Source: Macrostomum lignano (lineage: Eukaryota). From it: 64,000 nt of DNA. The notes under the pieces were generated by a model that worked only from the letters and a program-made list of their open reading frames with translations, was not told the origin of the DNA and did no database searches. The stretch spans positions 142,491-206,490 of the forward strand of contig NIVC01000781.1 in the NCBI GenBank assembly GCA_002269645.1, in the 5' to 3' direction. Both the position numbers and the translations under genes were made by a program. Positions within the stretch are counted from its first letter, which is position 1; every line of letters starts with the position of its first letter. Positions 32,637-62,705 of this stretch are shown piece after piece.

Positions 32637-33356
32637 ATGGCCCAACAAAATTCTCTATACGATCAGTCTCAATACGCTGAACCTAAAATACCGACAGCAC
32701 CAAACTCAATGGCACCGAATTCGAACACACAAAGCCTGAATGCACCGAATCTGAATGCACCTCAATATGAGCAACAAAAACTCTACCCCATCATTTCTTG
32801 TAACTCTCAACAATTTCGATTGGTGGAGATTCAAAAAATGCGAGATGACATTGAAAAAAATATTTTCCACAACACAAAGAAAATTGAGCGCTATAACAGC
32901 CACTGTAAATTTTTCGACTACAGCAATATGATTCTAGGATCTGTGTCTGTTCTATCTGGATCTGCTGCGGCTGTCTCAACGTTGCCAGTCATCACAGCCC
33001 CAATCGCAATCCCGCTCAGCTCTGTGGGTGCTGCGTGTGGACTTATTTCAGCAATTACTGGAGCATTAGCGCGAAATAGGCGAAAAAAACTAAAGCAGCT
33101 ACAGGAGAAGCAAGTAAAAGAGAAAGGGGTGCACACATCAATCATAGGGTACATTTCAAGGGCAATCGAACATAAGTTCATTTCAGAGGATGAGTTCAAA
33201 ACCATTCAGGATCTTTATGAACAAACAATTCGAATGAACTTGAACATGGTCGGTACTGATGACATGAGTCAGTTGAGAAATGAACTCGAGAAAGTTCTTC
33301 AACATTATGCGGAAAGAAAGTCGGCAAGAAGGAGGGTGAGAAATGCGCCACAATGA
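32637..33356 (+). CDS. Polinton A conserved membrane protein (hydrophobic helical hairpin) with PTAP and LYP motifs
   Basis: KLYP...FRLVEIQ, then hydrophobic ILGSVSVLSGSAAAV...IAIPLSSVGAACGLISAITG; homologous to B 54231-54971. Confidence 0.7.
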   Translation: MAQQNSLYDQSQYAEPKIPTAPNSMAPNSNTQSLNAPNLNAPQYEQQKLYPIISCNSQQFRLVEIQKMRDDIEKNIFHNTKKIERYNSHCKFFDYSNMILGSVSVLSGSAAAVSTLPVITAPIAIPLSSVGAACGLISAITGALARNRRKKLKQLQEKQVKEKGVHTSIIGYISRAIEHKFISEDEFKTIQDLYEQTIRMNLNMVGTDDMSQLRNELEKVLQHYAERKSARRRVRNAPQ

Positions 33357-33762: not shown

Positions 33763-33932
33763 TTTTATGTCATTTTTATGAGGTTTATTAAACTTTATCT
33801 TAAACCTAAACCCAACCTCCAGTGGCCGACCCTAATCTCCAGCTCCTAAACCTAATCTCCACCTCCTAAACCTAATCTCCACCTCCTAAACCTAATCTCC
33901 AGTGCCCGAACCTAACCTCCACCTCCTAAACC

Positions 33933-36900
33933 TTATCTCCAGTGCCCGAACGGTAGACTGTTAATATTGTCATCAAAAATGAATCTCTTGTTATCTGCAC
34001 CCGACAGTCCAATCTTCTTTTGCTGAATTGTGTGAATAATATGGTTTTTAGATTGTAGCTTTGAGAACTCATGTGATGTCTTTTTGTTGCAATTCAAGGC
34101 GTCCCTGTATTCAGCTTCATTAATTTCCTTCCTAACCACACGTTTCGGAATTCCCTTTGATTTTTTTATTGGGTCTGACGACTCACATTTTACAAAATAG
34201 GACTTTGCTCTCAACCCAATGAATTCCGTGATTATGTCACCAGCAATCTCGTCCTTCATTTTCCCAATCACTTTCTTGTTAGTAGCGTCAAACACTTGAT
34301 CGCCATTCTGTGTCCTGAAAGATTCATCATACTCAGACAAGTCAAACAAATCTTTTTGCTGCAGCATGTCCTGATAAATGTCTTCTGTTTGAATGTCCAT
34401 AATAAAACTGTCTGTGTCAGTGTACAAGAGTTTCATTTTATCCTTGTACTGCTGCTTCATGCCATAGAAGAACTGGTACATCAGACGTTTTGATTCGTCG
34501 AGAACAATGACACCTGTATAGATCTGCTTGCGCAGTGTCACCTTGGTTTTGTAAAATATGATCACACCCAAGTAGCTATTAAAGATATGGAGTTCTTTGA
34601 ATGTTGGCTTTGACATATTTGCTTGAATAACAGCAGGCTCTGATGAGGTAACAAGTTTCAGGTTTGTTCTTTTCCGCTCATTCTCAAGAGTCTTGCCATA
34701 GACAGAGTTGTTGGCCAACTTAAAGAGGTTCTTGTCAAACTCGTTGGTTGCTTTGGTCCTAAACTGGGTGTTCTTATCAATGTAGGGTTTCATCCACGCT
34801 TCCTCTGTAAATGTAAGAGCCCTGTGAACTTTGGTGACCCTGCAACCAAGTGAGATAAAATACTGAAGCAGTTTGTAATGGATTTTGTAACGTGTCTTGT
34901 TGTTTAGATTCTGTGTTAGTTTCTCTGTATGTTCTTTTTCTGTTCCTGACAGGCGCCAAGTTCCATTGGGAGTTTCGATTATTTTCGGACACTTGATGTT
35001 CCCTGGGAAGGGTGGAAAGTCAGGGAAATAGTCGTGAAGCTCTGGTGGAATGTAAACATCAACCTCATAAATGGCAGCCAATGAAAAGTCCCATTTGAAT
35101 TCTGATGAGGGTAGCCATCGAAAATCTCTAACTGGAAGATCTTGACTCATCGCCCACCCGTAGAGATTATTAGCGTCCAAGTAAGTAATGTAGTTTGAGG
35201 GCTGCTCCTTATTGTAAGATTCAATGTAGGGATTGTTCGCTTTTGCATACCTGTTAACACAAATTGAGATCCCCCCTCGCTTTGACGATTCGACAAAATT
35301 GTACATTTCAATATCTGTAAGAAGTTCAATGTACCAATCTGGATCTTGATCCCATTTCATTTTAAGCAAAGATTCCCAGCTAGTGGCAGGCAGAGACACA
35401 TAATGTGCTGGATCGAAGCCATATGCTGTGTACCAGGTGTATCTGAAAGTTTCAAACACATCGGCCAGCAGAAACACATCTGTGAAGAGGTAAAGCAGGT
35501 GATACTGGAAGAAGTTTTGACAATTAAAGTAATTATAGACATGCTTCGCGTGCTCATAGTCTTTGTCAGAGATTCCAGAGTCTGTTAGCTTTGAAAAGAA
35601 CTTCTCCTGTGGTGGTAAACCTTCTTCAAATACGTGATAACGAGTAATATTCTCATAGGGGTAGAAGCCTTTCTTTCTTAAAAGTTTAAATGATTCATCA
35701 GTGTTGTTAATTTTACTTGCAAATATCTTTGTATATGTACATTGTTCATCTTTTAGATTCTTGCTTAGTTCGTCTAGACTGGCAGCTAGAAATTGATATG
35801 AATCCTTCAGTCTTATTTTACCTTTACTGTTACCCGAATTATCCTGTTTAATATCAACACACTTAAACTTCTCCTTGTTCTCTGCGATGCAGTCAAGGTG
35901 TATGTCTGGAATCATGCCGATTTTTTCAACTATTAAATGCATGTCATAGTTCTTTGCGTTGTGACAAAATATCGTTAGATCATGAATGTTGGATTTTAGC
36001 TTTAGATTACAGGTGTTATGCGCTGCACCTCTAAATTTCCCAGTAAAGTGGCAGTGGTCCCTAACGGTTGGGTTTTTAATATCAGTGCAAGTTAACTGTT
36101 TCCTACAGATGTAGCAATGAGTTGCTGATAGGAAATTGCTTTCATCCTCCTCAGACATAATTATTGGAACAGGCTGAAGGGTGCTAATTACTCTTTGCAA
36201 CTCTAACATTCTGGCAATAAACTGCTCCACACACTGGTCTCCAAAGAAATAATTATACTCATCAAGTCCTTTTGTATTAATAAAGGCATATGCTACTGAA
36301 TTGAGGACATGTCTTTGAGTTTGAGTTTGTTTTTGAGTTTCTGGCATGATTGAGCATTCGAAATCAGCATATACAACAAATGGGAGCTTCTCCATCTTGT
36401 GATAGTTCTTAAAACGGAGATACTTTTCTTCAGCTGAAGGAAGAGAGCAGTTGGTCGGGTGATCCTCACATGATAATTCATGCTCTGCTAGTTTTTCAAT
36501 GCGCTCAGGTCCACTGTAATGCTTAAGGCACAAGCGGCAGATGGCAACAGCCTCGTGATGATTATTCAACTGCTTGTGAATGAGTATTGAAAGATCTTTA
36601 ATCCAAACATAGTGAGCCTCCTCTAGTAAATTACCAATCACTAGAAGATCAACCTCAGTCCGCCTTTTCCCCTCAGGATCTAAAACGTCTTTGCTACATC
36701 TGACCGGTTGAACTTTCTCAGTTTTTTCACTCCACTCAAAGACTGTGATTCTAATTTTGTTATTAAACACTTCTTCTAGTTTTGGAATCTGAGAGATCGC
36801 CAAGCCTCCTTTGTCAAACCTGATCCCCTTCTTTTCACATTCGATAAGATAGTACTTGAAATAATTTTGATAATTTGAGGTTCTTTCGGGGTGGTGAGGG

Positions 36901-38709: not shown

Positions 38710-41700
38710 AAGAAGCGTCATGTAAAAATCATAGATGCGTCATTTAAAAAAATCATAGAAGCGTCATGTAAAATATCATAGAAGCGTCATGTAAACAATC
38801 ATAGAAGCGTCATGTAAACAATCATAGAAGCGTCATGTAAACAATCATAGAAGCGTCATGTAAACAATCATAGAAGCGTCATGTAAACAATCATAGATGC
38901 GTCATTTAAAAAATCATAGAAGCGTCATGTAAAATATCATAGAAGCGTCATGTAAACAATCATAGAAGCGTCATGTAAACAATCATAGATGCGTCATTTA
39001 AAAAATCATAGAAGCGTCATGTAAAATATCATAGAAGCGTCATGTAAACAATCATAGAAGCGTCATGTAAACAATCATAGAAGCGTCATGTAAAAAATCA
39101 TAGAAGCGTCATGTTAACAATCATAGAAGCGTCATGTAAAAAATCGTAGAAGCGTCATGTAAAATATCATAGAAGCGTCATGTAAACAATCATAGAAGCG
39201 TCATGTAAAAATCATAGAAGCGTCATGTAAAATATCATAGAAGCGTCATGTAAAAAAATCATAGAAGCGTCATGTAAAAAATCGTAGAAGCGTCATGTAA
39301 AATATCATAGAAGCGTCATGTGAACAATCATAGAAGCGTCATGTAAAAATCATAGAAGCGTCATGTAAAAAATCATAGAAGCGTCATGTAAAAAAATCAT
39401 AAAAGCGTCATGTAAAAAATAATAGAAGCGTCATGTAAAAAATCAGAGAAGCGTCATGTAAACAATCATAGAAGCGTCATATAAAAATCATAGAAGCGTC
39501 ATGTAAACAATCATAGAAGCGTCATATAAAAATCATAGAAGCGTCATGTATAAAATCATAGAAGCGTCATGTAAAGATCATAGAAGCGTCATGTAAGCAA
39601 TCATAGAAGCGTCATGTAAAAATCATAGAAGCGTCATGTTAACAATCATAGAAGCGTCATGTAAAATATCATAGAAGCGTCATGTGAACAATCATAGAAG
39701 CGTCATGTAAAAATCATAGAAGCGTCATGTAAAAAATCATAGAAGCGTCATGTAAAAAAATCATAGTAGCGTCATGTAAACAATCATAGAAGCGTCATGT
39801 AAACAATCATAGAAGCGTCATGTAAACAATCATAGAAGCGTCATGTAAACAATCATAGATGCGTCATTTAAAAAATCATAGAAGCGTCATATAAAAATCA
39901 TAGATGCTTCATTTAAAAAATCATAGAAGCGTCATGTAAAATATCATAGAAGCGTCATGTAAACAATCATAGAAGCGTCATGTAAAAAACCATAGAAGCG
40001 TCATGTTAACAATCATAGAAGCGTCATGTAAACAATCATAGAAGCGTCATGTAAACAATCATAGAAGCGTCATGTAAACAATCATAGAAGCGTCATGTAA
40101 ACAATCATAGATGCGTCATTTAAAAAATCATAGAAGCGTCATATAAAAATCATAGATGCGTCATTTAAAAAATCATAGAAGCGTCATGTAAAATATCATA
40201 GAAGCGTCATGTAAACAATCATAGAAGCGTCATGTAAAAAATCATAGAAGCGTCATGTTAACAATCATAGAAGCGTCATGTAAACAATCATAGAAGCGTC
40301 ATGTAAACAATCATAGAAGCGTCATGTAAACAATCATAAAAGCGTCATGTAAACAATCATAGATGCGTCATTTAAAAAATCATAGAAGCGTCATGTAAAA
40401 AATCGTAGAAGCGTCATATAAAAATCATAGAAGCGTCATTTAAAAAATCATAGAAGCGTCATGTAAAATATCATAGAAGCGTCATGTAAAATATCATAGA
40501 AGCGTCATGTAAACAATCATAGAAGCGTCATGTAAACAATCATAGAAGCGTCATGTAAAAAATCGTAGAAGCGTCATATAAAAATCATAGAAGCGTCATT
40601 TAAAAAATCATAGAAGCGTCATGTAAAATATCATAGAAGCGTCATGTAAACAATCATAGAAGCGTCATGTAAACAATCATAGAAGCGTCATGTAAAAAAT
40701 CGTAGAAGCGTCATGTAAAATATCATAGAAGCGTCATGTGAACAATCATAGAAGCGTCATGTAAAAATCATAGAAGCGTCATGTAAAAAATCATAGAAGC
40801 GTCATGTAAAAAAATCATAGAAGCGTCATGTAAAAAATAATAGAAGCGTCATGTAAAAAATCAGAGAAGCGTCATGTAAACAATCATAGAAGCGTTATAT
40901 AAAAATCATAGAAGCGTCATGTAAACAATCATAGAAGCGTCATATAAAAATCATAGAAGCGTCATGTATAAAATCATAGAAGCGTCATGTAAAGATCATA
41001 GAAGCGTCATGTAAGCAATCATAGAAGCGCCATGTAAAAATCATAGAAGCGTCATGTTAACAATCATAGAAGCGTCATGTAAACAATCATAGAAGCGTCA
41101 TGTAAAATATCATAGAAGCGTCATGTAAACAATCATAGAAGCGTCATGTAAACAATCATAGAAGCGTCATGTAAACAATCATAGAAGCGTCATGTAAACA
41201 ATCATAGAAGCGTCATGTAAACAATCATAGAAGTGTCATGTAAACAATAATAGAAGCGTCATGTAAACAATCATAGAAGCGTCATGTAAACAATCATAGA
41301 AGCGTCATGTAAACAATCATAGAAGCGTCATGTAAACAATCATAGATGCGTCATTTAAACAATCATAGAAGCGTCATATAAAAATCATAGATGCGTCATT
41401 TAAAAAATCATAGAAGCGTCATGTAAAATATCATAGAAGCGTCATGTAAACAATCATAGAAGCGTCATGTAAAAAATCATAGAAGCGTCATGTTAACAAT
41501 CATAGAAGCGTCATGTTAACAATCATAGAAGCGTCATATAAAAATCATAAAAGCGTCATGTAAACAATCATAGAAGCGTCATGTAAACAATCATAGAAGC
41601 GTCATGTAAACAATCATAGAAGTGTCATGTAAACAATCATAGAAGCGTCATGTAAACAATCATAGAAGCGTCATGTAAACAATCATAGAAGCGTCATGTA

Positions 41701-42560
41701 AACAATCATAGAAGCGTCATGTAAAAAATCGTAGAAGCGTCATATAAAAATCATAGAAGCGTCATTTAAAAAATCATAGAAGCGTCATTTAAAAAATCAT
41801 AGAAGCGTAATGTAAACAATCATAGAAGCGTCATGTAAAAAATCATAGAAGCGGCATTTCAAAAATCATAGGAGCGTCATGTAAACAATCATAGAAGCGT
41901 CATGTAAAAAATCGTAGAAGCGTCATGTAAAATATCATAGAAGCGTCATGTAAACAATCATAGAAGCGTCATGTAAAAATCATAGAAGCGTCATGTAAAA
42001 TATCATAGAAGCGTCATGTAAAAAAATCATAGAAGCGTCATGTAAAAAATCGTAGAAGCGTCATGTAAAATATCATAGAAGCGTCATGTAAACAATCATA
42101 GAAGCGTCATATAAAAATCATAGAAGCGTCATGTATAAAATCATAGAAGCGTCATGTAAAGATCATAGAAGCGTCATGTAAGCAATCATAGAAGCGCCAT
42201 GTAAAAATCATAGAAGCGTCATGTAAACAATCATAGAAGCGTCATGTAAACAATCATAGAAGCGTCATGTAAAATATCATAGAAGCGTCATGTAAACAAT
42301 CATAGAAGCGTCATGTAAACAATCATAGAAGCGTCATGTAAAAAATCATAGAAGCGTCATGTAAAAAATCATAGAAGCGTCATGTAAAAAATCATAGAAG
42401 CGTCATGTAAAAAATCAGATAAGCGTCATGTAAACAATCATAGAAGCGTCATGTAAACAATCATAGAAGCATTATGTAAACAATCATAGAAACGTCATGT
42501 AAAAATCATAGAAGCGTCATGTAAAAAATCATAGAAGCCTTATTTAAAAACTAATGAAAG
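38710..42560. repeat. 23-bp satellite (ATCATAGAAGCGTCATGTAAACA)n inside Helitron copy 1
   Basis: Period 23 over ~3.85 kb. Confidence 0.97.
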
Positions 42561-43480
42561 TGTCATTTAAAAAATTAGGAAGCATCATGGTAGAATAAAA
42601 GAAGCATCATGGTAGAATAAAAGAAGCATCATGTCAGACATGAAGGGTGTCATGTAAAAATTAAATGCAGCTATAATGCTGTGCTGGGGAGAAAAACTGA
42701 GACGTCAAGGCTCTCAGAGAATAACTGAGATTATGGGTGGGGGGGGGTTTCTGAAATTCTGTGATGTCAAAGCAAAAGTCAGAAGCTACTTCAAAGTTCA
42801 TGTACTTTACTCAATTTTTTATTGCATTCTTTGTTGGCTCGCCACGGGGGGGGCGCTGATAGAAGAAGAGTCATGTAAAAAATAAAAGTAGCACTACGTA
42901 TACATAAAAGAAAAGTCATGTCGAAGTTAAAAGATTCATTTGGGAATTGCTACGAGGTCAAAGCTTGGTGGAAATCGTTATAGTGCTGTGATTCTTAAAG
43001 AAGGAATCACTAAAATGTCAAGGCTTAGGGGAGAAGAATTGCTGAGATTTCAAGGCTTTAGGTTGGGTTAAAGTTAGGTTTAGGTCAGGTGTGGGTTGAG
43101 GGTTATATTTTATCGGGTTTCAAGGTTAACGGGGGATTTTTCAGATTTCAAGGTTTATGGGGGCCATCGCTGACATGTTAAGGCTTACGGGGGGAATAGC
43201 TGAGATGTCAAGGCTCACGGGGGTATAAATAAGATTTCAAGGCTAAAGTCAGAAGCTACATGTAGTTTATTGAAAAATTTTTATTACATTATTTGATGCC
43301 TCCTCAGGGGAGGGATCGCTGATAAAAAAGCGTAATGTAAAAAATAAAAGAAGCTTCATTTCGAAGTTAAGAGATTCATTTGGGAATCCCTACGATGTCG
43401 AGGCTTGCAGGGAATCACTATAATGCTGTAGTAGTGCTATAATGACTCTTAGAGAGAATTATTACTGAAATTTCAATGCT

Positions 43481-43547
43481 TTAGGGTTAGGTTAGGGTTA
43501 GGGTTAGGGTTAGGGTTAGGGTTAGGGTTAGGCTAGGGTTAGGGTTA
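43481..43547 (+). repeat. Interstitial (TTAGGG)n inside Helitron copy 1
   Basis: About 11 near-perfect units. Confidence 0.9.
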
Positions 43548-44344
43548 GAAGGTTGACAGATATTTTTAGATTTCCAAGGCTTATTGGGGGCATTGCTGAG
43601 ATGTCAAGGGGGGGGAATTACTGACATGTCAAGGCTTACAAGGTTTGACAAGAGATTTTTTAAGATTTCAAGGATACATGTAGCTTATTAAAAAAAATGT
43701 GTATTGCATTTCTTTGGCTCCCCAACGGGGGGCGTAGATTGCTAGTCCAATATACTAAAAATGGTCTGTCTGTGTCTATCTATCTATCTATGTGATTGAT
43801 TAGAGAAAAAATGGCTGGACCGATTTTTTTCAAACTTGCACTGTTCGATCTGAAATTTTCCCGTGACTGTACATGCATCGTGGCTAAGAAATTGCTCGAT
43901 GCTAAAGGCATTAAATATTCGAAAAACATGCTTTTTTGCAAAGGTCAAGCAAACTTTTCGACTTGAAATGCATTGTAAGAATTCTAGAGAAAAAAAAACT
44001 GACTGGTTGAATTCTGATTCTGAAATAGATTGCATCATAACTGAATTGTAACTCCGACTTGAATTGAAAATGCAGTGTGGAAGCGTAGTATCAGATTTAA
44101 CTGATACTGACTGACTGAGAAATTGATTATGTCATAACTGCTTCGTGTGATTTACTCTATGCTTGGATTTAAAAGTGTTGAATTAAATAAGTGAAAAATT
44201 TGATGTTATCAAAACGATGAGAGCTAGCCTAGAGGTGAACAAACTGAACTGCTAAATGCAGCGACGATGGTTCGAATTTTCATAGAGTATAATTTTTTTA
44301 ATTAAAGCTTTTCAATGTCAGGAAAACTAAAAGACTTTTTAAAA

Positions 44345-46100
44345 AGAAGCGTCATGTAAAAATCTTCTAGAAGCGTCATGTAAAAAATCGTGGAAGCGTC
44401 ATTTAAAAAATCATAGAAGCGTCATTTAAAAAATCATGGAAGCGTCATATAAAAATCATAGATGCGTCATTTAAAAAATCAAAGATGCGTCATTTAAAAA
44501 ATCATAGAAGCGCCATGTAAACAATCATAAAATCGTCATTTAAAAAATCATAAAAGCGTCATGTAAAAATCATAGAAGCGTCATGTAAACAATCATAAAA
44601 GCGTCATGTAAAAAATCATAGAAGCGTCATGCAAACAATCATAGAAGCGTCATATAAAAATCATAAAAGCGTCATGTAAACAATCATAGAAGCGTCATGT
44701 AAACAATCATAGAAGCGTCATGTAAACAATCATAGAAGTGTCATGTAAACAATCATAGAAGCGTCATGTAAACAATCATAGAAGCGTCATGTAAACAATC
44801 ATAGAAGCGTCATGTAAACAATCATAGAAGCGTCATGTAAACAATCATAGAAGCGTCATGTAAACAATTATAGAAGCGTCAAGAAAAAATCATAGAGGCC
44901 TCATTTAAAAAACATAGAAGCGTCATTTAAAAAATCATAGAAGCGTCATGTAAAAAATCAGAGAATCGTCATGTAAACAATCATAAAAGCGTCATTTCAA
45001 AAATCATAGAAGCGTCATATAAAAATTATAGATGCGTCATTTCAACAATCATAGAAGCGTCACAAAAAAATCATAGAAGCGTCATGTAAAAAATCATAGA
45101 AGTGTCATGTAAAAATCGTAGAAGCGTCATGCAAAAAATCATAGAAGCGTCATGTAAAAAATCATAGAAGCGTCATGTAAACAATCATAGAAGCGTCATG
45201 TGAAAAATCGTAGAAGCGTCATTTTAAAATCATGGAAGCATCATTTAAAAAATCATAGAAGCGTCATGTAAACAATCATAGAAGCGTCATGTAAACAATC
45301 ATAGAAGCGCCATGTAAAAAATCATAGAAGCGTCATCTAAAAAATCATGGAAGCGTCATTTAAAAAATCATAGAAGCGTCATGTAAAAAATCATAGAAGC
45401 GTCATGTAAAAAATCATAGAAGCGTCATGTAAACAATCATAGAAGCCTCATGTAAACAATCATAAAAGCGTCATGTAAACAATCATAGAAGCGTCATGTA
45501 AAAAATCAGAGAAGCGTCATGTAAACAATCATAGAAGTGTCATGTAAACAATCATAGAAGCGTCATGTAAACAATCATAGAAGCGTCATGTAAACAATCA
45601 TAGAAGCGTCATGTAAAAAATCAGAGAAGCGTCATGTAAAAAATCATAGAAGCGTCATGTAACAATCATAGAAGCGTCATGTAAAAATCATAAAAGCGTC
45701 ATGTAAAAATCATAGAAGCGTCATGTAAACAATCATAGAAGCGTCATTTAAAAAAGTCATAAAAGCGTCATGTAAAAAATCATAGAAGCGTCATGTAAAC
45801 AATCATAGAAGCGTCATGTAAACAATCATAGAAGCGTCATGTAAAAAATCATAGAAGCATCGTGTAAACAATCATAGAAGCGTCATGTAAACAATCATAG
45901 AAGCGTCATGTAAACAATCATAGAAGCGTCATGTAAAAAATCAGAGAAGCGTCATGGAAACAATCATAGAAGCGTCATGTAACAATCATAGAAGCGTCAT
46001 TTAAAAAATCATAGAAGCGTCATGTAAACAATCATAGAAGCGTCATATAAAAATCATAGAAGCGTCAAGAAAAAATCATAGAAGCCTCATTTAAAAACTA
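44345..46100. repeat. 23-bp satellite inside Helitron copy 2
   Basis: Same unit as 38710-42560, ~1.75 kb. Confidence 0.97.
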
Positions 46101-46992
46101 ATGAGTGTCATTTAAAAAATTAAGAAGCATCATGGTGGAATAAAAGAAGCGTCATGTCAGACATGAAGGGTGTCATGTAAAAATAAATGCAGCTATAATG
46201 CTGTGCTGGGTAGAAAAACTGAGACGTAAAGGCTCTCAGAGAATAACTGAGATTACGGGGGGGGGGGGGGTTCTGAGATGTCAAAGCAAAAGTCAGAAGC
46301 TACTTCAAAGTTCATGTACTTTACTCAATTTTTTATTGCATTCTTTGTTGGCTCGCCACGGGGGGGGGTCGCTGATAGAAGAAGAGTCATGTAAAAAATA
46401 AAAGTAGCACTATGTATACATAAAAGAAAAGTCATGTCGAAGTTAAAAGATTCATTTGGGAATTGCTACGATGTCAAAGCTTGGTGGAAATCGTTATAGT
46501 GCTGTGATTCTTAAAGAAGGAATCACTAAAATGTCAAGGCTTAGGGGAGAAGAATTGCTGAGATTTCAAGGCTTTAGGTTGGGTTAAAGTTAGGTTTAGG
46601 TCAGGTGTGGGTTGAGGGTTATATTTTATCGAGTTTCAAGGTTAACAGGGGATTTTTTAGATTTCAAGGTTTATGGGGGCCATCGCTGACATGTCAAGGC
46701 TTACGGGGGGAATAGCTGAGATGTCAAGGCTCACGGGGGTATAAATGAGATTTCAAGGCTAAAGTCAGAAGCTACATGTAGTTTATTGAAAACTTTTATT
46801 ACATTATTTGATGCCTCCTCAGGGGAGGGATCGCTGATAAAAAAAGCGTAATGTAAAAAATAAAAGAAGCTTCATGTCGAAGTTAAGATATTCATTTGGG
46901 AATCCCAACGATGTCGAGGCTTGCAGGGAATCGCTATAATGCTGTAGTAGTGCTATAATGACTCTTAGAGAGAATTACTGAAATTTCAATGC

Positions 46993-47062
46993 TTTAGGGT
47001 TGGGTTAGGGTTAGGGTTAGGGTTAGGGTTAGGGTTAGGGTTAGGCTATAGGGTTAGGGTTA
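46993..47062 (+). repeat. Interstitial (TTAGGG)n inside Helitron copy 2
   Basis: About 11 near-perfect units. Confidence 0.9.
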
Positions 47063-47259
47063 GAAGGTTGACAGATATTTTTAGATTTCCAAGGCTTATT
47101 GGGGGCATTGCTGAGATGTCAAGGGGGGGGAATTACTGACATGTCAAGGCTTACAAGGTTTGACAAGAGATTTTTTAAGATTTCAAGGATACATGTAGCT
47201 TATTAAAAAAACGTGTATTGCATTTCTTTGGCTCCCCAACGGGGGGCGTAGATTGCTAG

Positions 47260-47710: not shown

Positions 47711-48148
47711 TTAGTTAGCTGATGAAGCAGCAGTACCTCGGTTGTCAGCAGTGCCTTGGATGTCAGCAGTGCCTCGGTTGTCAGCAGTGCCTCGGTTGTC
47801 AGCAGTGCCTCGGTTGTCAGCAGCGATCTCATAGGGTGGTGGAAGGCTATCATCTTCAGTATCCAAATCACCAATCGCTTGCATGGCTTGAGCTTGGTTT
47901 TGATAGGATAGTGCAATAGCTTGCATGCTTTTTCTTTTTGCCACATTTTCCTTCAGAAGCTTCAGGAGCTTATCCTCCTCCGTAAAGGACTTGAATGTAT
48001 CTAAACCTTGTAGCTTATTGATTAGTCTCTCAGAACCTAGATCTGCAAATATAGTTAATGGCATGAGCCTTCGAATCTTTTGCTTTGTGAGTTCGAATTC
48101 CTTTCGATGATCCCTATATCTCTTGCGAAGTTCCTTTTCGGATGGCAT
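47711..48148 (-). CDS. Polinton B hypothetical protein with PPPY motif and (ADNRGT)n tail
   Basis: 145-aa ORF; 18-bp coding repeat. Confidence 0.55.
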   Translation of the reverse strand: MPSEKELRKRYRDHRKEFELTKQKIRRLMPLTIFADLGSERLINKLQGLDTFKSFTEEDKLLKLLKENVAKRKSMQAIALSYQNQAQAMQAIGDLDTEDDSLPPPYEIAADNRGTADNRGTADNRGTADIQGTADNRGTAASSAN

Positions 48149-49554: not shown

Positions 49555-49960
49555 ATTCACATCGAATACTGCAGTATCTGGTTCTTTTTTGCTCGTTGCT
49601 TTTTCACATCGAATACTGCAGTATCTGGTTCTTTTTTGCTCGTTGCTTTTCACATCGAATACTGCAGTATCTGGTTCTTTTTTGCTCGTTGCTTTTCACA
49701 TCGAATACTGCAGTATCTGGTTCTTTTTTGCTCGTTGCTTTTCACATCGAATACTGCAGTATCTGGTTCTTTTTTGCTCGTTGCTTTTCACATCGAATAC
49801 TGCAGTATCTGGTTCTTTTTTGCTCGTTGCTTTTCACATCGAATACTGCAGTATCTGGTTCTTTTTTGCTCGTTGCTTTTCACATCGAATACTGCAGTAT
49901 CTGGTTCTTTTTTGGTCGCTGCTTTTTCACATCGAATACTGCAGTATCTGGTTCTTTTTC
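49555..49960. repeat. 46-bp tandem repeat upstream of pPolB
   Basis: Period 46 (49621, 49667); no spacers. Confidence 0.95.
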
Positions 49961-54230: not shown

Positions 54231-54971
54231 TTAATTGTAGGGAGGTGCACTTGGAGCATTTGATTGAAGATTGAGTGTTGCCGAGTACTCTTTTGGCTTA
54301 TCAGCTAGACCCAATTTTTCTCTCAGATCTTTTTCTAGTAATTCCTTTTTAATTTTTTCCTTCGCTGAATGACCAAGTCTACTCTCTTTGAGGATTTTAT
54401 CAACGACTTCCGAATGGTTAACTTCTTCAGGCGCAACACAGGCGTCTAACAATTGATCTCTTTTTTCTCTGTATTCTGAATAAATTGCAGCAGCTGCTTG
54501 AACCTCTTCAAGAGTTAATCTATAATCATCAACTGCTTTTTGGGAGTAAATATACAATCTCTCTCTGTATTGATTTGCCAGATCTCTGAGAACAATGTAT
54601 TTTGCCTTCTGCTTTTGGCAATGAATTTTCACAGTTGCAAACAACGACGTGGATTTTACAGCTTCAAAACCACTCATTGCCCCGATTACTACTCCAATAA
54701 CTAAGGGATTCAATGTCAGTATCGATGTTGCTATGCCAATTCCTGTAGCAGCCAAGAGACTTACATTTCCTGTCACAATGTTGATCCAATTTATCCTGCT
54801 ACTTTGCCGTTTGTACTTTTTTACCTTTTTGCTATAAATTGTAAGATCTTTAGTAATGCATTCAATACTGCCTTTGATTTCACCCTTTCTCTGATTGAAA
54901 TAGTCCCGCTCCCTCAAATCTGCTTCATGCAGCTCAACCACAGGATAGATGTGTTCATTTTTTTCATTCAT
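54231..54971 (-). CDS. Polinton B conserved membrane protein with YPx3L and PSAP motifs
   Basis: Likely true start MNEKNEHIYPVVEL (TAAAAATG at 54971); hydrophobic hairpin NIVTGNVSLLAATGIGIATSILTLNPLVIGVVIG; C-terminal APSAPPYN. Confidence 0.7.
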   Translation of the reverse strand: MNEKNEHIYPVVELHEADLRERDYFNQRKGEIKGSIECITKDLTIYSKKVKKYKRQSSRINWINIVTGNVSLLAATGIGIATSILTLNPLVIGVVIGAMSGFEAVKSTSLFATVKIHCQKQKAKYIVLRDLANQYRERLYIYSQKAVDDYRLTLEEVQAAAAIYSEYREKRDQLLDACVAPEEVNHSEVVDKILKESRLGHSAKEKIKKELLEKDLREKLGLADKPKEYSATLNLQSNAPSAPPYN

Positions 54972-54973
54972 TT

Positions 54974-56379
54974 TTATGTGGCGATTATGTCTAAAATCGG
55001 ATAAAGTTGAAAGCCTGAAACAATAAGAACGTTGATCCTTCAGTGGCTGAATTAATATGCACTCTATAACGGAGAATTTTTCGGTGGAAGCTACTTCAAA
55101 ATATTTCATGACTCCAGGAACTAAACCAGCGTTTTCGGTAGAAAAAATATTCCTAAAGTCTCTCTTGTTATTGCTCCCTTTCAGAATAAAACTTTTTGGT
55201 TGATTTTTTATAATTTCACTACCTACTGCTTTGGTTCCTTTCAATCCGAATTTCCAAATTTGAATAGACTCGGGAAGTTGTACTTCAATGTAAGAATTGG
55301 GTTCATTCCTCGATGCCCATTCTGAATTAGATACTATATAACCCCAATTATCTGACGTTTCAAATGCTCCTGATGACGCTACATTGAAACCCCTTTCTCT
55401 ATAGTTTTGACGTGTTGCTAGTGAGGGAATATATCCTGTATAAGATTTGAAACCTAGTCCCCGCCTTAGTCGCAGCTCCACTGATTCAAGTGCATTGTCT
55501 ACGTATAGCTTTGGTACAGCTTGAAGTCTATCTATAGGCCACACTAAATCATTAACCACTGTTTGTCTCTCAAGTAATTCAACTTTTGTAAGCTTTACGG
55601 AACCAGAAAAATTAAGAGAATAATGGAAATAATATGAGGGATTGGGTATTTTTTTCCTAAGATGTGCATTGCCCTTCGTAGTTCAATGGGTGCACTTTGT
55701 TCAACAGGTGTCCAGTTTGTTCCATTTAGGCTCACACTAACAGACCAACCAGGCCACACCTCTCCTTCCAACTTTATCTCTACAACTTTCCTAGCTCTTT
55801 TCAAAAATTGAAATCGTATCCACTTGTCTGAGTCATCTACACTGCTCCATCTGAAGCTGGGTTTGAATCTGCAACATGATATGCTGCTGAAGAGTTATGA
55901 GAAGCGGTCACTTTCATGTCAGAATGGGAAGCGTTTGAAGTCAGTAATGAAAGAATATTGACTAATTTCGAACTCTCTGTACCTCCCGCAGTACCTTGCC
56001 TTTCTGCTAACAAAGTGTCAATTTCGGTTTTAGAATACATCTTAGTGTCAATTTCGGTTTTAGAATACATCTTAGTGTCAATCTCAGTTTTAGAATACAT
56101 CTTAGTGTCAGTTTCGGTTTTTGTGTAGACATTGTTTACGCGCCCATGAGCATCGTCAATTAATTGTAGCATGGTGATATTCATTGCGTCACTATCTTCC
56201 TTTGAATAAGAGTCTGAAACATTTCTCTTTGCTAACAATAAATTATCTATTTCCTCTCTCTTATATCCTTCATTTTCATTGATGTATCGATCATCAGCTA
56301 ACGCTATTGTTATTCCAGGTGCTATATCATTTGAATTTGACGAGTAACCAAATTGATTGGCAGTATTCTTGTAACTCAT
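54974..56379 (-). pseudogene. Polinton B fibre/receptor-binding protein (YSKTEIDTK repeats plus two discoidin/F5-8-like domains), broken by ~4 frameshifts
   Basis: Reconstructed: ...AYHVADS/PSFRWSSVDDSDKWIRFQF.../NPSYYFHYSLNF...VNDLVWP...WASRNEPNSYIEVQLP...FS/YRVHINSATEGSTF/IVSGFQLYPILDIIAT*. Confidence 0.7.
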
Positions 56380-56806
56380 TTTAATTGCTGCAAAATTTCA
56401 TTATAGCTATCTCCTTTATCGATTCGGTGTAAAAAGTACAGCGACATTTGACCACAAATTTCTTATCAAAAGTTTGAATTTGTTCTTCCATGTCTCCACA
56501 TATTCTATTCTTTGTGTGATTAAACTTTTCCATAATTTCCAGTGTGGGCGGTAGTGCATAGGAATCAAAAAAATAAACCTTATCAGGAGCTGAAAATATA
56601 GCTGAATGATGTATACCCCGTTCTTTCGAAGTGTGAATATTTGTCATAAAGTAACCATACTGTGGTAAATCAACAATTTCATCTCTCATGGCATAGCGAA
56701 ATGGTTTTAACTTGAGATATTTTGCCCAATTTATCAGATCAATATTAGTCGTAGTGTCAGTCCCAAACTTTTGTTTAAATGCATTCCATGTCTCAGCTTC
56801 GCTCAT
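56376..56806 (-). pseudogene. Polinton B adenain protease with one frameshift before the catalytic Cys
   Basis: GIHHSA, FFDSY, QIQ. Adding one T at AAATTTGTGG (~56455) restores KFCGQMSLYFLYRIDKGDSYNEILQQLK*. Confidence 0.85.
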
Positions 56807-56815
56807 TTTTAACAC

Positions 56816-57606
56816 TCATATTTGTCGTACGTGTAGATTTATAAATATTTCCTCGCCATCAAAGTCGTATAGAACACCAGACTCATCTTCGATGACAAAG
56901 TCGAATGTGCTCAACATGTTTGTAGTTAGTGGTAGGTACACAGGATTTGCAGGCTCTTGAATAATTTTACTTCCCATTGGGACAGAGAACGATGGAATTG
57001 AAAGAAGTATTTGCTTATCAATTAAATGATTTCCATTAGCTGGATCAGTGATAAACCCCCTTTGATATTTAGACAACGAACCATGATCGCACTTCTAGCT
57101 CCGTCTATCCGAGCTGGATTTGGAGCTCTCTCAAATGGTTTCAAATACACTTCCGAATTGAATCCCAACAGTCTTCTAAAGTTATTGGAATGTGCATCCC
57201 TGAAATCAACTTGATAATCTGTGGCTAACCGTAACTCAACTCTACGCGTGTCTAGGCTTGCACTGAAAACAATAGCCCCCTCTTTCCAATCATTTGCAGC
57301 TGTTAGCAATCTTTGAATCTCGCTTGACAGACTTTTAACTTCCCAAGATCCCGCTTGAATCTTTATTTTTTTCCATGTTCTACCACTATCCCTCGAGTAT
57401 CGCAACTCATTATTGCCTCCTTCAATATTGTTAATAGCATCAAAGACTGCAAACTTTTTTATACCAGCTTCGTATTCTCGATCTTCATACAAATTTATCG
57501 GAGTGCCTAGAGTTTGTCGAAATGGGTTTTTAATTGAAAAGAAGTCAAATGTGCGTTGAAACTTTTTACTCAAGAGGATGTTGACTTTTTCTATTTCTTT
57601 TTCCAT
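56816..57606 (-). pseudogene. Polinton B penton/minor capsid protein, one frameshift at a G run (~57056)
   Basis: Track ORFs 57022-57606 and 56816-57076 join at NIKGG/FITDPANG. Confidence 0.75.
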
Positions 57607-57608
57607 TT

Positions 57609-58333
57609 TTAAGCAAGTAATTCTGCTAGCTCTTTATCAACATTGTTATGTCCTCTGCTTGCGGCTATAAGTTAACACTCTTTCACTGAGTCCAGATCCC
57701 GGTTTTACTCGATATCCTGGTGGATTATCTTTCAATATCCTTACTGCTTGCTTATAATTCCCACTTGATTTGGCCGCTGGATTTTTACAATGTTCAATGA
57801 GGTTAACATAATCCTGCAATGTTTGCATCTTGAATTGCTTCAGCTCTTCACCATTTTCAGTTACTTTAGGCATTTTGAACAACTCTTCAAGATCTTCAGA
57901 AAATGGCATTCGAAATTCGTTGACAATGATGTCTCGACCTTGTTCATGGAATTCAACATCTATTACAGATGATCCAAATATATATCCAGCATCAGTTTTT
58001 TGAATCCGTATACTAGGCGCTGGTCTTTGAGTTATTGGAATCTTTCCAATTTCTTCAATTATTTTGTCAAATACTTCAGGGTTCAAATCGGCCTTTTGGT
58101 GTACTTGATTGCGGAACTGGAACTTTTTGATTCTGAAGTTTATCAACAAGGTTGGCATTGACATCAATAAATTCATCGAGCTTTTCTGTGACAGGTTTTT
58201 GAGCTAATGGAGCCACTCTTGCATATAAACTCTCTTCTCCAATTTTCAAATAGCGTTGAGCATCATTTCTGGATTTGTACATTTCTCGCTGCTTTGCTAA
58301 ATTAATGAGTTCTCTTATATATTCATTAGTCAT
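57609..58333 (-). pseudogene. Polinton B conserved protein (homolog of A 29280-30449), frameshifted
   Basis: MTNEYIREL...EESLYARVAPLAQKP, then ...PGSGLSERVL/LIAASRGHNNVDKELAELLA*. Confidence 0.65.
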
Positions 58334-58335
58334 TT

Positions 58336-59109
58336 TTACAATGGGATTTTAGTTAGAACATCCTTATACAAATCTTGCTCATCCTCATCAGCTCTTGTAT
58401 TTATATAGATATAGCCATACTTCTTTTTCCAAGCCTCTCTACATTTAGCCTTGAATATAGCGGGTTCATAATTCGTTTCTATATTTCTAGCAATGTGATT
58501 TAAGTTTGTATCTTTTTGTTTAAAGATTATGTAACATGTCGTATTCTCCCTGACAGTATTGCGATCTAGTTTGGTAAAATTTTGAGCTAGATAAAAACCA
58601 CAACAGTTTCCATGCCTGCCTCTCTGAAACAGACTTTCCTGAAATGTTTGATTAGCCTCTCCCAAAACATCATCCAATATCACACATGTCTTTAGTCCAT
58701 TATGAAAAATTTCTTCATTTGGAGTATGGGAAAGAGTGACAGGAATTTTCTCTATTACTTCTGAATTTTCTGATGTGCTTTGCACTCGACCAGGGTTGGC
58801 TGCCTCTCGACAAATATGTCTAATATCTTCAGGAGATGCATCCTCACTCACCTGGTAGACATGATAGAGTGAGTTGATAAGAGAAGGTGGGAGACCATTT
58901 TCAAAGCCATATTTTAGAAACTGATACTCTGGATCCATTTGAGATGCTCTGGGAACATATAAAACTAACTCATTAAAGTCAACTAGTTTTTCAGGACTTG
59001 TAAGAATATGGAATAGTAAATATGTTTTACCCGTATTTGTAGCGCCGATAATACAACATAAAAGAGGATTAGGGAAAATAGGATCATGCTGAAATTTTAC
59101 TTTGGGCAT
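58336..59109 (-). CDS. Polinton B A32/FtsK-HerA-like packaging ATPase
   Basis: Walker A GATNTGKT, Walker B CVILDD, RGRH, YLAQ. Confidence 0.92.
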   Translation of the reverse strand: MPKVKFQHDPIFPNPLLCCIIGATNTGKTYLLFHILTSPEKLVDFNELVLYVPRASQMDPEYQFLKYGFENGLPPSLINSLYHVYQVSEDASPEDIRHICREAANPGRVQSTSENSEVIEKIPVTLSHTPNEEIFHNGLKTCVILDDVLGEANQTFQESLFQRGRHGNCCGFYLAQNFTKLDRNTVRENTTCYIIFKQKDTNLNHIARNIETNYEPAIFKAKCREAWKKKYGYIYINTRADEDEQDLYKDVLTKIPL

Positions 59110-59130
59110 TTAAAAAAAGAAAAAATGACC

Positions 59131-60490
59131 TTATTCGACGCGGGTCATTTGATATTCACTGGTAACTTTTATTACATTCTTTGTTTGTTCAAGAATTAGT
59201 GCAAAAGCAGTCAGCTCAACATTTGTTGACTTCTTGATAAATAATTGAATATTCACTCCACTCTTGACAGAAACTCATCTGAGCTGTTAGATCAAAGCAA
59301 AAGATTGGATAGATGGTTAGAAAGTCTTGTTTATTGAATGGAGGAGTTACACCGAAACGGCTGCAGATGTCTCGTACATTTCATACGCTCTGTGAATGTC
59401 TTGAGCTACTGGATCAATTTCAACATAATCATTCGGATACATCACCTGATTTAATCTGACTTGAAGCTGGGTTATTTTCACTGCATTTGCTCCAGTTTTG
59501 TAAGACACATACTTGTGATCATTAACTATATATGATGGGTTGTTTACGTCATATTTGAAAGCTACAAAGATTGCAAGTGGCATATTGGAGATGTTGGCTA
59601 TGTTCCATGTATATGGACTTCCTTGAATGAGTTGTGGCGGAACCGTTACCCTCTCTGGAAATGATACTGTAATGTCCTTGTTGAGTGATTTTAGAAAAGC
59701 TGCTTCAGCACTGGGTGACAAAGTAATAGCAGGGATCCAAATCTCAAAGCTATTAATAGTTAACTTAGCTTCCGTCCCGGCAGCTCCAAAGAAAATTTCA
59801 GCATCGTTAGTCTTTCTTGTCCATGTGAATTTATATTTAATTCCTTTGCTAATCTTCTGCCAATCAAGGAACCCAATGAGGGTGTTAATGATAGTTTGAT
59901 TGTTCCACCTCTGTTTGGAGCATTAGTGACATTGTTATAATTTTCAAGCCTCCTAATGTATCCAGTATTCGAATCCTTCTTATTGAGTCTATTTTTCATA
60001 GCGATTGCTGCAGTTCTCACAGCTTCAGCATCTGCGTTGTTTGCTAGAGTATATCAGAAACAGTCCCAGCATCTCCAGTGTCTGGAATCCATCCGTATGC
60101 TTCTCCAACTTCATTCATTAATTTTGAGTACATTACGGACTTTAAGATTGTGTCATACTCTCCAGGATCATTATAGACTTTCTTTGTTCCTCCAATGTCA
60201 ACTATGAGTTGAGAGAAAAGTCTCATAGGCCAATTATGTTCTAGAGTAATGTTCGTATTCAAGTCGGTGTTATCTCGTTGTGTTATTGAGTATTTTATAC
60301 AACCGAATGCCTCTGACATGAGAATGTATGACTCTGTTGAATTGACTTCATGAACTATTTGACCTCCTGCAACATTGAGATTATTAGTGCTACCTGGAGT
60401 TGGAGAAATCTTAATATAGTCTTCTTTCTTTTTGAAAAAGCTAAAAGTTTTGTCCTCATATAGATTCAGTATATCCTTTTTGTTCTCCAT
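59131..60490 (-). pseudogene. Polinton B major capsid protein (double jelly-roll type), several frameshifts
   Basis: Track ORFs 60044-60490, 59760-60020 and 59347-59721 plus hand-read segments (IGFLDWQKISKGIKYKFTWTRK; NHPIFCFDLTAQ; SGVNIQLFIKK...TRVE*) total ~450 codons. Confidence 0.8.
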
Positions 60491-60509
60491 TTTTATAGAG
60501 AAATTTCAA

Positions 60510-60962
60510 CTAAGCTTCATGAGGTCTAAGAATTATCCCATTACCCTGTTTCTCCTTTTCAACTTTAAAAGTCTTTAGCAGCCACTTGACTGCTTCGCTG
60601 GGTACTTGTTCGACTCTTTTAGCCGCATCAACTAATACTCCACTCCCTTGAGCCTTTTTCAACTCTTCTAGTTTTTGCCGTTCAATGCTTTCTATTGTCT
60701 TATTATGCTTAGCATTGTTGGCTGTATTAACACTTTTTGCAATCATTGTACCAACTCCTGAGGCTGCTCCGATACCACCCAAAATTGCTGGTAGTAAGCC
60801 TAATAGAGGAATTATTCCACCTTCATGTTCTTTCTGTTTCTCTTGCAATTCTCGAATCTTCTCTTTAGAAAGATATTGCTTTTGCTTATTTACAGTAACA
60901 TATCTTGGTTTTCCCTCTCGAACATATCGATTGAGTCTTGCTTCAGTGTTTTTCTCGCTCAT
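60510..60962 (-). CDS. Polinton B adenovirus pX-like/membrane-active protein candidate
   Basis: GGIIPLLGLLPAILGGIGAASGVG resembles the adenoviral pX GG-hydrophobic C-terminal segment. Confidence 0.6.
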   Translation of the reverse strand: MSEKNTEARLNRYVREGKPRYVTVNKQKQYLSKEKIRELQEKQKEHEGGIIPLLGLLPAILGGIGAASGVGTMIAKSVNTANNAKHNKTIESIERQKLEELKKAQGSGVLVDAAKRVEQVPSEAVKWLLKTFKVEKEKQGNGIILRPHEA

Positions 60963-60970
60963 TTTTAAGG

Positions 60971-61393
60971 TCAGAATTTCTTCAAACCATTGCCTTGTCT
61001 CAAAGACACTTGAGACTGTTCTGCTGTTCCTAGAGCCTTTTTAACAATATCTTGAATAGCCTTATTTGATTGAGAAGCTATCTGTTGCTCTTCTTCCATT
61101 CTTTTCTTTGCTTCTTTATCTCTACGTTTCTTTTTAATATATTCCAGTTCCTCACCTGCTTTAGACATGTCACTGTATGATTTCTTCGCATCGAATATGT
61201 TCTTCGCTGTGGTAGCTGTTTTACCTATTGCATCAGCTCCACTCACAATTTTACTTCCATGATTTGATAAAAAGTTTGTGACACCACTGATCATATCACC
61301 AATTCCTTCACCCTCTTTATCAGCTAGTAGTTGTGAATCAGACGTTTCAATCTGACCTTTCGCCCGTTTGCAGTTTGTTCGATAGGCGCTCAT
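60971..61393 (-). CDS. Polinton B small amphipathic-helix virion protein candidate
   Basis: Likely start MSAYRT (TAAAAATG at 61393); EGEGIGDMISGVTNFLSNHGSKIVSG; similar to A 30469-30843. Confidence 0.6.
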   Translation of the reverse strand: MSAYRTNCKRAKGQIETSDSQLLADKEGEGIGDMISGVTNFLSNHGSKIVSGADAIGKTATTAKNIFDAKKSYSDMSKAGEELEYIKKKRRDKEAKKRMEEEQQIASQSNKAIQDIVKKALGTAEQSQVSLRQGNGLKKF

Positions 61394-62705
61394 TTTTAGT
61401 TGAAAAATTTGCTGGTAGAAGCTGGGATTTGTAAAATGATCCAATGATTTCTTCTCCATTCTCATCCTCAATAATGTAGGTTATGGGATTGGAGTAAACT
61501 ATTTTCTTTATCCTAAACACTTCTGAAATTTTCCAATATCCTCTTCGACCCTTTTCAAAGTGCTCCTTATATCTATAGATATGAACTTTGTCACCTACTT
61601 TGAAGTTTGGTTTCTCATTTGAATACTCGAAAGTTGGCTTTGGTACTCGCTCAGGATGTTTAGATGCTTCTGAAGGAGTTATCAGAATCTCAGAATGGAT
61701 TGTGTTGTTGTATTTTTCAACAATAGCTGGCAATGTGTGGAGCCACTTCTGATTACCCTGTAGATCAAATTCAAACCAGAGTTTATTTGTGAGAGTACGA
61801 TTGAACCTCTCAATCATTGCATTCTTGGACTCGCCATAAATTGAAAACATCTTGTTAATATATTCACCCCTTTCATCCTTCTTTCTAATGTTGTCTTTTG
61901 AAAACGAGTATAGCTTGTACATATGCTGATTATAAAACTCCTTGCCTTCATCTACACAAAGTCTCTCTGATCGTCTTCCTGATTCCTTAAATACTTTTTG
62001 GAAAGCTTCTGCAACTTCCGCTCCCGTCTTTGTTTTCAAAGGAACTGCCCAGGCGTAACGTGTAAAACCATCTATGATAGTGAGAGCATATTTGTAACCT
62101 CTTTCGGGCGGTAGGATAATGATATCTGCATGCCAAATTGTGTCTTTTGCATAGTGAATCATTTTTCTAAATACTCTTGGCTTTCTGTATTCCCTATGCA
62201 ATTTTACTGCATCTTCATAGCTAAGACCCTTACCATAAATTGTTAGACAGTCTATACAATTGTTGGGGTTGTGAGTATGAATTCCTAATCCAAACCGAAC
62301 TTTAGCATTGATAATACGCTTTACTAGATTTCTAATGAGTCTCTCCTTTACCGACAAGTCGCTGGTTGGAATAGCATCTAAATCAGCTATCATTTTTTCA
62401 TCAGCAATATGCTTCTTTGCTAGGGCTTCCTCTGGAGTTGAAGACGTCTTTTCAGCATCTCTATAGCTTTTGTCATGATAGTAAGCAGTCCAATCAATTG
62501 GATTAATTGGTAGACTATCATACCGAGGCCAGTCTGTAATTGGATTGAGTCTCTTGTCTAAATTTGTACCTGGGCCAGTGAAAGAATACCCTGGAATATG
62601 AAATTCGCCAGGATATTTTCCAGTGGCGAAGATGGGTGGTAGTTTTGTTATAGCTGACTGAATATCCAATGCAGAACCTAGAAATAATGGTTTACTGAAG
62701 GCCAT
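61347..62705 (-). CDS. Polinton B parvovirus-type phospholipase A2 domain fused to retroviral-like DDE integrase
   Basis: GYSFTGPGT and DWTAYYHDKSY (PLA2 Ca-loop and HD dyad); WHADI, CVDEG, IERFNRT (DDE); FKVGDKV C-terminal domain. Confidence 0.92.
   Translation of the reverse strand: MAFSKPLFLGSALDIQSAITKLPPIFATGKYPGEFHIPGYSFTGPGTNLDKRLNPITDWPRYDSLPINPIDWTAYYHDKSYRDAEKTSSTPEEALAKKHIADEKMIADLDAIPTSDLSVKERLIRNLVKRIINAKVRFGLGIHTHNPNNCIDCLTIYGKGLSYEDAVKLHREYRKPRVFRKMIHYAKDTIWHADIIILPPERGYKYALTIIDGFTRYAWAVPLKTKTGAEVAEAFQKVFKESGRRSERLCVDEGKEFYNQHMYKLYSFSKDNIRKKDERGEYINKMFSIYGESKNAMIERFNRTLTNKLWFEFDLQGNQKWLHTLPAIVEKYNNTIHSEILITPSEASKHPERVPKPTFEYSNEKPNFKVGDKVHIYRYKEHFEKGRRGYWKISEVFRIKKIVYSNPITYIIEDENGEEIIGSFYKSQLLPANFSTKNERLSNKLQTGERSD

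Follow-up and report, generated by a model that had tools for sequence, protein, structure and literature searches.

Late domains are established links between viral proteins and the ESCRT machinery, in which P[ST]AP motifs bind TSG101 and YPXnL motifs bind ALIX (PMC8402826). The orbivirus protein NS3 contains two transmembrane (TM) helices, basic motifs before the first of them, and PSAP and PPRY late domains, and it serves a non-lytic exit; NS3 of bluetongue virus bridges non-enveloped capsids to ESCRT (PMC7409164). A bare match to such a motif is weak evidence, because more than 20 motif-bearing proteins of tiger frog virus were tested and only three bound (PMC4880917). Virions of Mavericks (Polintons) are so far unobserved (PMC8097293). 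Nematode elements have been proposed to be enveloped on account of a fusogen (10.1101/2022.07.12.499685, 10.1101/2023.08.22.554363), and envelopment of other elements is stated as an open question (10.1101/2023.08.22.554363). In the literature searched, we found no paper that connects ESCRT or late domains to Mavericks (Polintons); the family described below may be annotated in subscription journals or in some supplements (the slides of PMC8502044, bioRxiv). In the accessible text of PMC8502044, 10.1101/2024.03.25.586562, PMC12220804, 10.1101/2022.07.12.499685, and two 2026 preprints including 10.64898/2026.10.13.758929, a keyword search for ESCRT gave no occurrence.

The window, by which we mean the whole stretch of 64,000 nucleotides analysed, contains two Mavericks, element A and element B, and element B sits inside element A, about 110 bp upstream of the start of the A polymerase. 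Element B is a Maverick/Polinton. The arms of its terminal inverted repeats (TIRs) are 99% complementary over 677 nt, and its ends read AGTAGT...ACTACT, the AGT-repeat end motif of Mavericks described in PMC8097293. It contains an integrase (Pfam rve, E 7e-10), an A32-type packaging ATPase (Pox_A32, E 7e-6), a piece of a double jelly-roll (DJR) capsid gene (E 0.001), and a family B polymerase, a 1275-aa ORF whose only Pfam match is to Endonuclease_7 and which carries the polymerase-like motifs YVDCTNLYG and DTDS. Of a possible 6-bp target-site duplication, three right-flank bases are visible at the edge of the window, and they match a 6-bp left flank. Judging by the type of element and the repeat-rich flanks, the host is probably an animal. 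The features discussed below are listed in Table 1.

Table 1 Positions in the window of element B, the two hairpin-protein genes, and their predicted features
Feature	Position	Strand	Basis
Maverick/Polinton element B, carrying the P0001 gene	37330..63997	.	TIRs, Pfam genes
Homologous gene of element A (P0002, 239 aa)	32637..33356	(+)	translation, alignment
PTAP, residues 19-22, in the N-terminal leader of P0002	32691..32702	(+)	
LYPII, residues 49-53, YP motif of the n=1 type in P0002	32781..32795	(+)	
Predicted hairpin membrane protein gene of element B (P0001, 246 aa)	54231..54971	(-)	translation, relatives, model
IYPVVEL, residues 8-14 of P0001, candidate ALIX-binding YPXnL motif, n=3	54930..54950	(-)	close alignment
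PSAP, residues 240-243 of P0001, candidate TSG101-binding motif at the end of an unstructured tail	54243..54254	(-)	conserved
Uncharged 43-aa segment, residues 60-102 of P0001, predicted helix-turn-helix membrane hairpin with basic flanks	54666..54794	(-)	
C-terminal helix, residues 186-219 of P0001, then unstructured tail	54315..54416	(-)	model; kept in close relatives

Several other observations concern the build of the two elements. Directly after its left TIR, element B contains ~8 kb of 23-bp tandem repeats (window 38711-47149), and a block containing (TTAGGG)n occurs twice in the same interval; element B is thereby 26.7 kb long. Shorter arrays adjoin the two polymerase genes, one of 46-bp repeats upstream of that of element B (window 49556-49959) and one of 20-bp repeats downstream of that of element A (window 33805-33951). 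The capsid, minor capsid, protease, and fibre-like genes of element B are in pieces (window 55000-60500, minus strand), despite 99% identical TIRs and an intact polymerase ORF, and this may be real decay or the result of assembly errors. On the same strand, the integrase core shares one reading frame with a phospholipase A2 domain of the parvovirus type (window 61347-62705), as a fusion or a frame artefact. A 145-aa ORF (window 47711-48148, minus strand) has coiled-coil character and a PPPY near its repeat-rich C-terminus, and it is a possible NEDD4-binding partner in the same pathway as the motifs studied here. Before the capsid gene, a 150-aa ORF (window 60510-60962, minus strand) contains a glycine-rich amphipathic stretch, which we take to be similar to membrane-lytic peptides, and lies in the position described for the Maverick gene PW. 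PW is located between two capsid genes (PMC8097293), and the gene that is the subject of this study differs from it, as compared by position. In both elements, this gene is found at the end of the virion-gene block, after or beside a fibre-like or coiled-coil gene.

The gene of element B is translated into 246 residues and a stop, with MNEKNEHIYPVVEL at the N-terminus and NAPSAPPYN at the C-terminus. Its frame remains open for 196 further codons upstream, so that a 442-aa ORF could be read from 55559. The initial annotation took the Met at 54971 as the likely true start, and we agree, because the extra stretch upstream of it weakly matches discoidin (F5/8 type C, E 0.003, window 55083-55436, minus strand) and the close relatives begin within a few residues of that Met (5/5). 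The 442-aa reading was rejected, as its upstream part resembles a separate, broken discoidin-like gene. The weak discoidin match suggests a fibre with a sugar-binding tip. The proteins of elements A and B are homologous by a weak alignment (21% identity over 98 aa, E 3e-7), which is the comparison that the initial annotation had proposed.

The translation confirms the two motifs that had been noted in the element B protein, a YPx3L near the N-terminus and a PSAP near the C-terminus, and also the contrast drawn with element A, in which PTAP is N-terminal. Five close relatives share 64-69% identity with the element B protein. YPx3L is kept in all five, and Y9, P10, and L14 are invariant in the six rows of the close alignment, with variation at residues 11-13. 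The C-terminal PSAP is found in four of the five, and the fifth ends before the tail; the tetrapeptide is identical in all four full-length relatives, and the three residues preceding it match in 0/4. A further fragment (P0020) also has the C-terminal PSAP. In P0027, a more remote member of the B clade (32% identity, 176 aa), neither motif is present. The proposed pair of motifs therefore withstands comparison with close B relatives, with P0027 as the exception.

Of 100,000 shuffles of the element B protein, 6.5% contained YPxxx[LI] alone, 0.14% contained P[ST]AP, and 0.004% combined P[ST]AP with a hydrophobic-YP-x1/3-[LI] motif. Among 27 other listed element ORFs (6,929 aa), there was no P[ST]AP and there were two YPxnL-type matches. 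We also considered reading the tail sequence PSAPPY as a PPxY motif and rejected it, since the pattern PP.Y has no match in the protein. The extended context of long-form YPXnL motifs (ELM) has L or M before the Tyr and a further L or I three residues past the last Leu. The element B protein has Ile before the Tyr and Ala at the later position, where three of the five relatives have L or I.

The motifs were then counted across the protein family. A profile of 15 proteins matched at least 669 clusters (50% identity) at E<=0.001; the best 150 of 669 were taken, and we analysed the 142 representatives with a hydrophobic segment and an intact leader, dropping 8 fragments. These are helix/hydrophobic-hairpin/helix proteins, and all 142 pass on the core alone (E<=1e-5). 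On the N-side, before the hairpin, P[ST]AP is found in 53/142 (500 shuffles: mean 0.21, maximum 2) and [LIMVF]YPx[LI], with the x position free, in 94/142 (mean 0.74, maximum 4), frequencies that are inflated because the query profile included YP columns and favoured motif carriers, and that are set against shuffles which ignore kinship. In the lowest third by core-only score, the counts of the YP motif and of P[ST]AP were 38 and 27 of 48, and in the upper two thirds 56 and 29 of 94. A second set of 112 more redundant matches showed the same pattern, with the n=1 motif in 107 and P[ST]AP in 40, and among eight relatives of the element A protein an N-terminal P[ST]AP was found in seven and a hydrophobic-YP motif in all eight, in six of them as YPx[LI]. 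Neither YPx3[LI] (7 of the 142; shuffle mean 3.4, maximum 11) nor PPxY (6; shuffle maximum 7) is enriched. The remaining 33 representatives carry no motif and are shorter (median 178 vs 209 aa), and some of them may be truncated. No relative was found in the phage collection, and close-clade patterns gave 600 pattern matches in prokaryotic genomes, none of which was confirmed.

When P[ST]AP is counted anywhere in the protein, 56/142 representatives carry it, with Ser in 40 and Thr in 16 at the second position, and P[^ST]AP is found in only 3. Ten of the 11 other arrangements of the P[ST]AP letters score 0-3; the eleventh, [ST]APP, scores 26 and overlaps P[ST]AP itself. Both motifs are present together in 49 proteins, where P[ST]AP stands before YP in 20, after it in 26, and on the C-terminal side in 3; order and spacing vary across the family, with offsets from -22 to +18. 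It could be argued that proline-rich tails gave rise to the motifs by chance, or that the motifs bind non-ESCRT partners, and the YPx3[LI] of element B, taken alone, lends itself to this explanation through its frequency in the shuffles of the protein and its lack of enrichment in the family. For P[ST]AP and the n=1 motif, chance is excluded by the composition-preserving shuffles and the anagram controls, and the pattern of fixed and free positions would fit two independent ESCRT ligands. We therefore regard this explanation as highly improbable.

The two motifs appear to have different histories. In the alignment, IYPVVEL of the element B protein corresponds to LYPxL of the element A relatives, which is the N-terminal n=1 motif of the family. 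The likeness to the YPx3L of HIV p6 pointed out in the initial annotation holds within the B clade, where n=3 is found in 6/6 close rows, and does not extend to the family, whose norm is n=1. The n=3 spacing is a state of the B clade and the weakest part of the late-domain claim; the last Leu (L14) may be held because the first modelled helix (H11-81) starts there. We built a core-only FastTree tree, which is weakly supported, and an IQ-TREE tree of 28 of 147 rows with 200 bootstraps; the trees are unrooted. The placement of PSAP takes at least 13 changes on the weakly supported core-only tree. A C-terminal PSAP is found in three lineages (the B clade, P0060, and P0094) and takes three changes in 200/200 bootstrap trees of the 28-row subset. 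A single clade for it is rejected with p-AU 0.0002, in an AU test weakened because the grouping was defined with the first tree already in view. The B clade is placed among n=1 proteins, and its sister row P0136 (96/93) has an N-terminal LYPDI plus PSAP. These observations suggest that the C-terminal placement of PSAP arose more than once, and that in the B lineage PSAP came to sit in the C-terminal tail rather than in the leader, with a change of the YP motif from n=1 to n=3. Position independence, claimed at the outset for the motifs in general, thus applies to PSAP, according to the 20/26/3 split and the AU test, and not to the YP motif, which was inherited in place according to its frequency and the alignment. 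As the position independence of PSAP is seen across the family, the argument is stronger than a comparison of elements A and B alone could make it. Conservation and repeated re-placement of the motifs would raise the odds of binding above those of a bare motif match.

An AlphaFold2 model of the element B protein made with 147 sequences has a mean pLDDT of 82 and contains helices H11-81, H90-149, H154-179, and H186-219, followed by coil in an unstructured tail. The turn between the first two helices is ~8 residues long (82-89) and has no sequon. It is spanned by the uncharged segment, which has 8 K/R upstream and 4 downstream within 20 aa. The hydropathy of the second hairpin helix is 2.1 and that of the first only 0.75; the first helix is weakly hydrophobic throughout the B clade (0.75-1.2). 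Of the 142 representatives, 140 have a net positive charge ahead of the hydrophobic segment and 141 have one behind it; their K/R-free stretch measures a median of 54 aa, enough for two helices. No N-terminal hydrophobic signal was found among 15 proteins checked, and sequons show no enrichment and no clear depletion on either side of the segment (87 vs 93 and 64 vs 73 expected). The charges and the hairpin point to a membrane hairpin with both termini in the cytosol, so the motifs are predicted on the side where ESCRT could reach them rather than on the luminal side, which had been named as the outcome that would speak against late domains. A single-pass topology, which the weak first helix makes conceivable, would place the PSAP of element B in the lumen.

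The best fold matches of the model in BFVD were the invertebrate iridovirus proteins S6DF61, A0A5B8RH66, and A0A068QKD3 (E 3e-5 to 2e-4); together with Q06VM1, the matches comprise iridovirus proteins and one unnamed entry. Foldseek gave no match to solved structures at E<=0.001, and sequence searches of the PDB gave nothing specific (best E 0.11 and 0.0012). An ESCRT-III-like fold was considered and rejected: VIA-align, run on a first and weaker model, returned the generic helical bundles BAR, IST1, and CHMP3 with Z up to 10.1, which is in the uninformative range.

These searches bear on the possibility that the protein acts mainly as a pore or viroporin of the SLATT type, serving lysis or escape from endosomes, with ESCRT motifs that merely route the protein or tune membrane repair. 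Pore functions are proposed for the SLATT genes of polinton-like viruses in PMC12220804 and 10.64898/2026.10.13.758929, and there are weak SLATT matches in the family (SLATT_1 in 6/147 members and SLATT_5 in 2/147, best E 3.4e-6), as well as Foldseek matches to giant-virus SLATT proteins at E 0.1-0.2 and, from the sequence searches of the PDB, a match to the translocator AopB at E 0.0012. The element B protein scores 14.9 bits with the SLATT_1 model, below its cutoff of 26.3, and the scattered weak matches in the family probably come from a generic combination of coiled coil and hydrophobic hairpin. A pore alone would also leave unexplained two ESCRT motifs that are kept and re-placed family-wide. 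We consider a pore as the main function improbable, and note that it overlaps with the exit function preferred here, as NS3 is thought to do both jobs (PMC7409164).

We propose that the family consists of Maverick-encoded, membrane-anchored ESCRT adaptors that would engage TSG101 and probably ALIX. The building blocks found by sequence or model are a long helix, a hydrophobic hairpin, a return helix, and unstructured tails with P[ST]AP and YPXnL-type motifs. The hairpin would lie in a host membrane with both tails facing the cytosol. There, as late domains do, P[ST]AP would engage TSG101 (ESCRT-I) through its UEV domain, and the YP motif would engage ALIX through its V domain. TSG101 and ALIX would then recruit ESCRT-III, which would cut a bud directed away from the cytosol. 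By analogy with orbivirus NS3, the adaptor would mark the budding site of non-enveloped Maverick capsids, into endosomes or through the plasma membrane; the capsids might be held by its C-terminal helices, and the outcome would be a non-lytic, membrane-cloaked release. The confidence differs between the parts of this proposal. Binding of ESCRT by the family is very probable, and the PSAP of element B is likely to be functional, whereas its YPx3L may or may not still bind ALIX, with even odds. We estimate a probability of roughly 55% that capsid release is the purpose of the family protein.

The motifs would be equally at home in a protein that binds ESCRT solely for its own sorting, or that of bound host proteins, into multivesicular bodies and exosomes, in the service of turnover, receptor down-regulation, or signalling, with no release of capsids. 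All of the motif evidence fits this explanation equally well, no capsid-binding surface has been identified, and no fusogen was recognised by Pfam in element A or element B. The last point also weighs against capsid release, and hepatitis A virus shows that a fusogen is dispensable for such release (10.1101/2022.04.26.489493). Sorting alone would not account for the location of the gene within the virion-gene block of both elements, and the pairing of two different types of late domain is a typical feature of budding proteins (PMC8402826). On balance, sorting without capsid release seems unlikely, with some real chance of being right.

If Mavericks resemble adenoviruses, they should assemble in the nucleus, and ALIX takes part in the nuclear egress of herpesviruses. 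The protein might accordingly recruit ESCRT at the nuclear envelope for the exit of capsids from the nucleus, or it might sequester ESCRT against a co-infecting enveloped giant virus. Interference of the latter kind would be consistent with iridoviruses, which bud through ESCRT (PMC4880917) and have been proposed as Maverick activators (PMC8097293), and with the invertebrate iridovirus proteins being the best fold matches. The presence of a similar protein in the iridoviruses themselves would fit a pro-egress role better than interference, and we judge nuclear exit or interference decidedly improbable.

A widespread protein with two candidate ESCRT-recruiting motifs offers a concrete exit route and suggests looking for particles in vesicle fractions rather than naked-particle fractions. 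The family would also provide a natural series of late-domain rearrangements across hundreds of divergent proteins. The element B protein is an unusual member that suggests that PSAP is able to shift to the other end, and the main value lies in the family-wide signal. More tentatively, and with somewhat less than even odds, animal Mavericks of many lineages may encode a dedicated NS3-like exit protein, independent of that of orbiviruses and with a fold shared with invertebrate iridoviruses, by which their capsids bud through ESCRT. In that case Mavericks would spread as quasi-enveloped particles, cloaked in membrane and with no need of a fusogen; this might account both for their virions having gone unnoticed and for the passage of the elements between cells and into germ lines.

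The family resembles known systems in different respects. The uncharacterised invertebrate iridovirus proteins named above share its fold (TM about 0.5, 16-20% identity). In polinton-like viruses and adintoviruses, two-TM proteins of the SLATT type similarly combine a two-helix membrane hairpin with cytosolic helices after it. They differ in that the element B protein falls below the Pfam cutoffs, and the SLATT papers, in their accessible text, propose pores without mention of ESCRT or late domains; the label 'SLATT' on some adintovirus maps may denote the family described here (Starrett et al. 2021, PMC8502044; supplementary Fig. S2). Retroviral late domains (PTAP and YPX3L of HIV-1 p6, YPXL of EIAV p9) belong to the same motif classes and can likewise occur in one protein, independent of position (PMC8402826), but their carrier is Gag rather than an integral membrane hairpin. 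The n=1 spacing of EIAV is the norm of the family, with n=3 only in the B clade. Hepatitis A virus (YPX1/3L in VP2, and pX) is similar in its non-enveloped capsid, its non-lytic ESCRT release, and the lack of a viral fusogen on the vesicle (10.1101/2022.04.26.489493), but carries its signals on capsid proteins and not on a separate membrane protein.

The closest parallel is orbivirus NS3 (bluetongue virus; PF01616). NS3, which belongs to a non-enveloped icosahedral virus, is a protein of ~200-250 aa. It has a pair of membrane helices with basic residues ahead of the first, a predicted coiled coil, and PSAP in a cytosolic tail (PMC7409164); the predicted architecture of the family likewise has a hydrophobic hairpin preceded by a basic motif, and a tail that carries a late domain. 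Differences are also evident. NS3 pairs PSAP with PPRY, whereas the family pairs it with YPXnL; NS3 has a 21-aa glycosylated loop in place of the short turn without a sequon; and NS3 comes from a dsRNA virus rather than a dsDNA integrating element. PF01616 has no match in the element B protein at E<=0.5 and matches 3/147 members at a best E of 0.0022, which is not significant, and NS3 atlas scores of 0.75-0.76 lie in the chance range. On the best reading of this comparison, which is by analogy, the element B protein would work like NS3 without being a member of the NS3 family.
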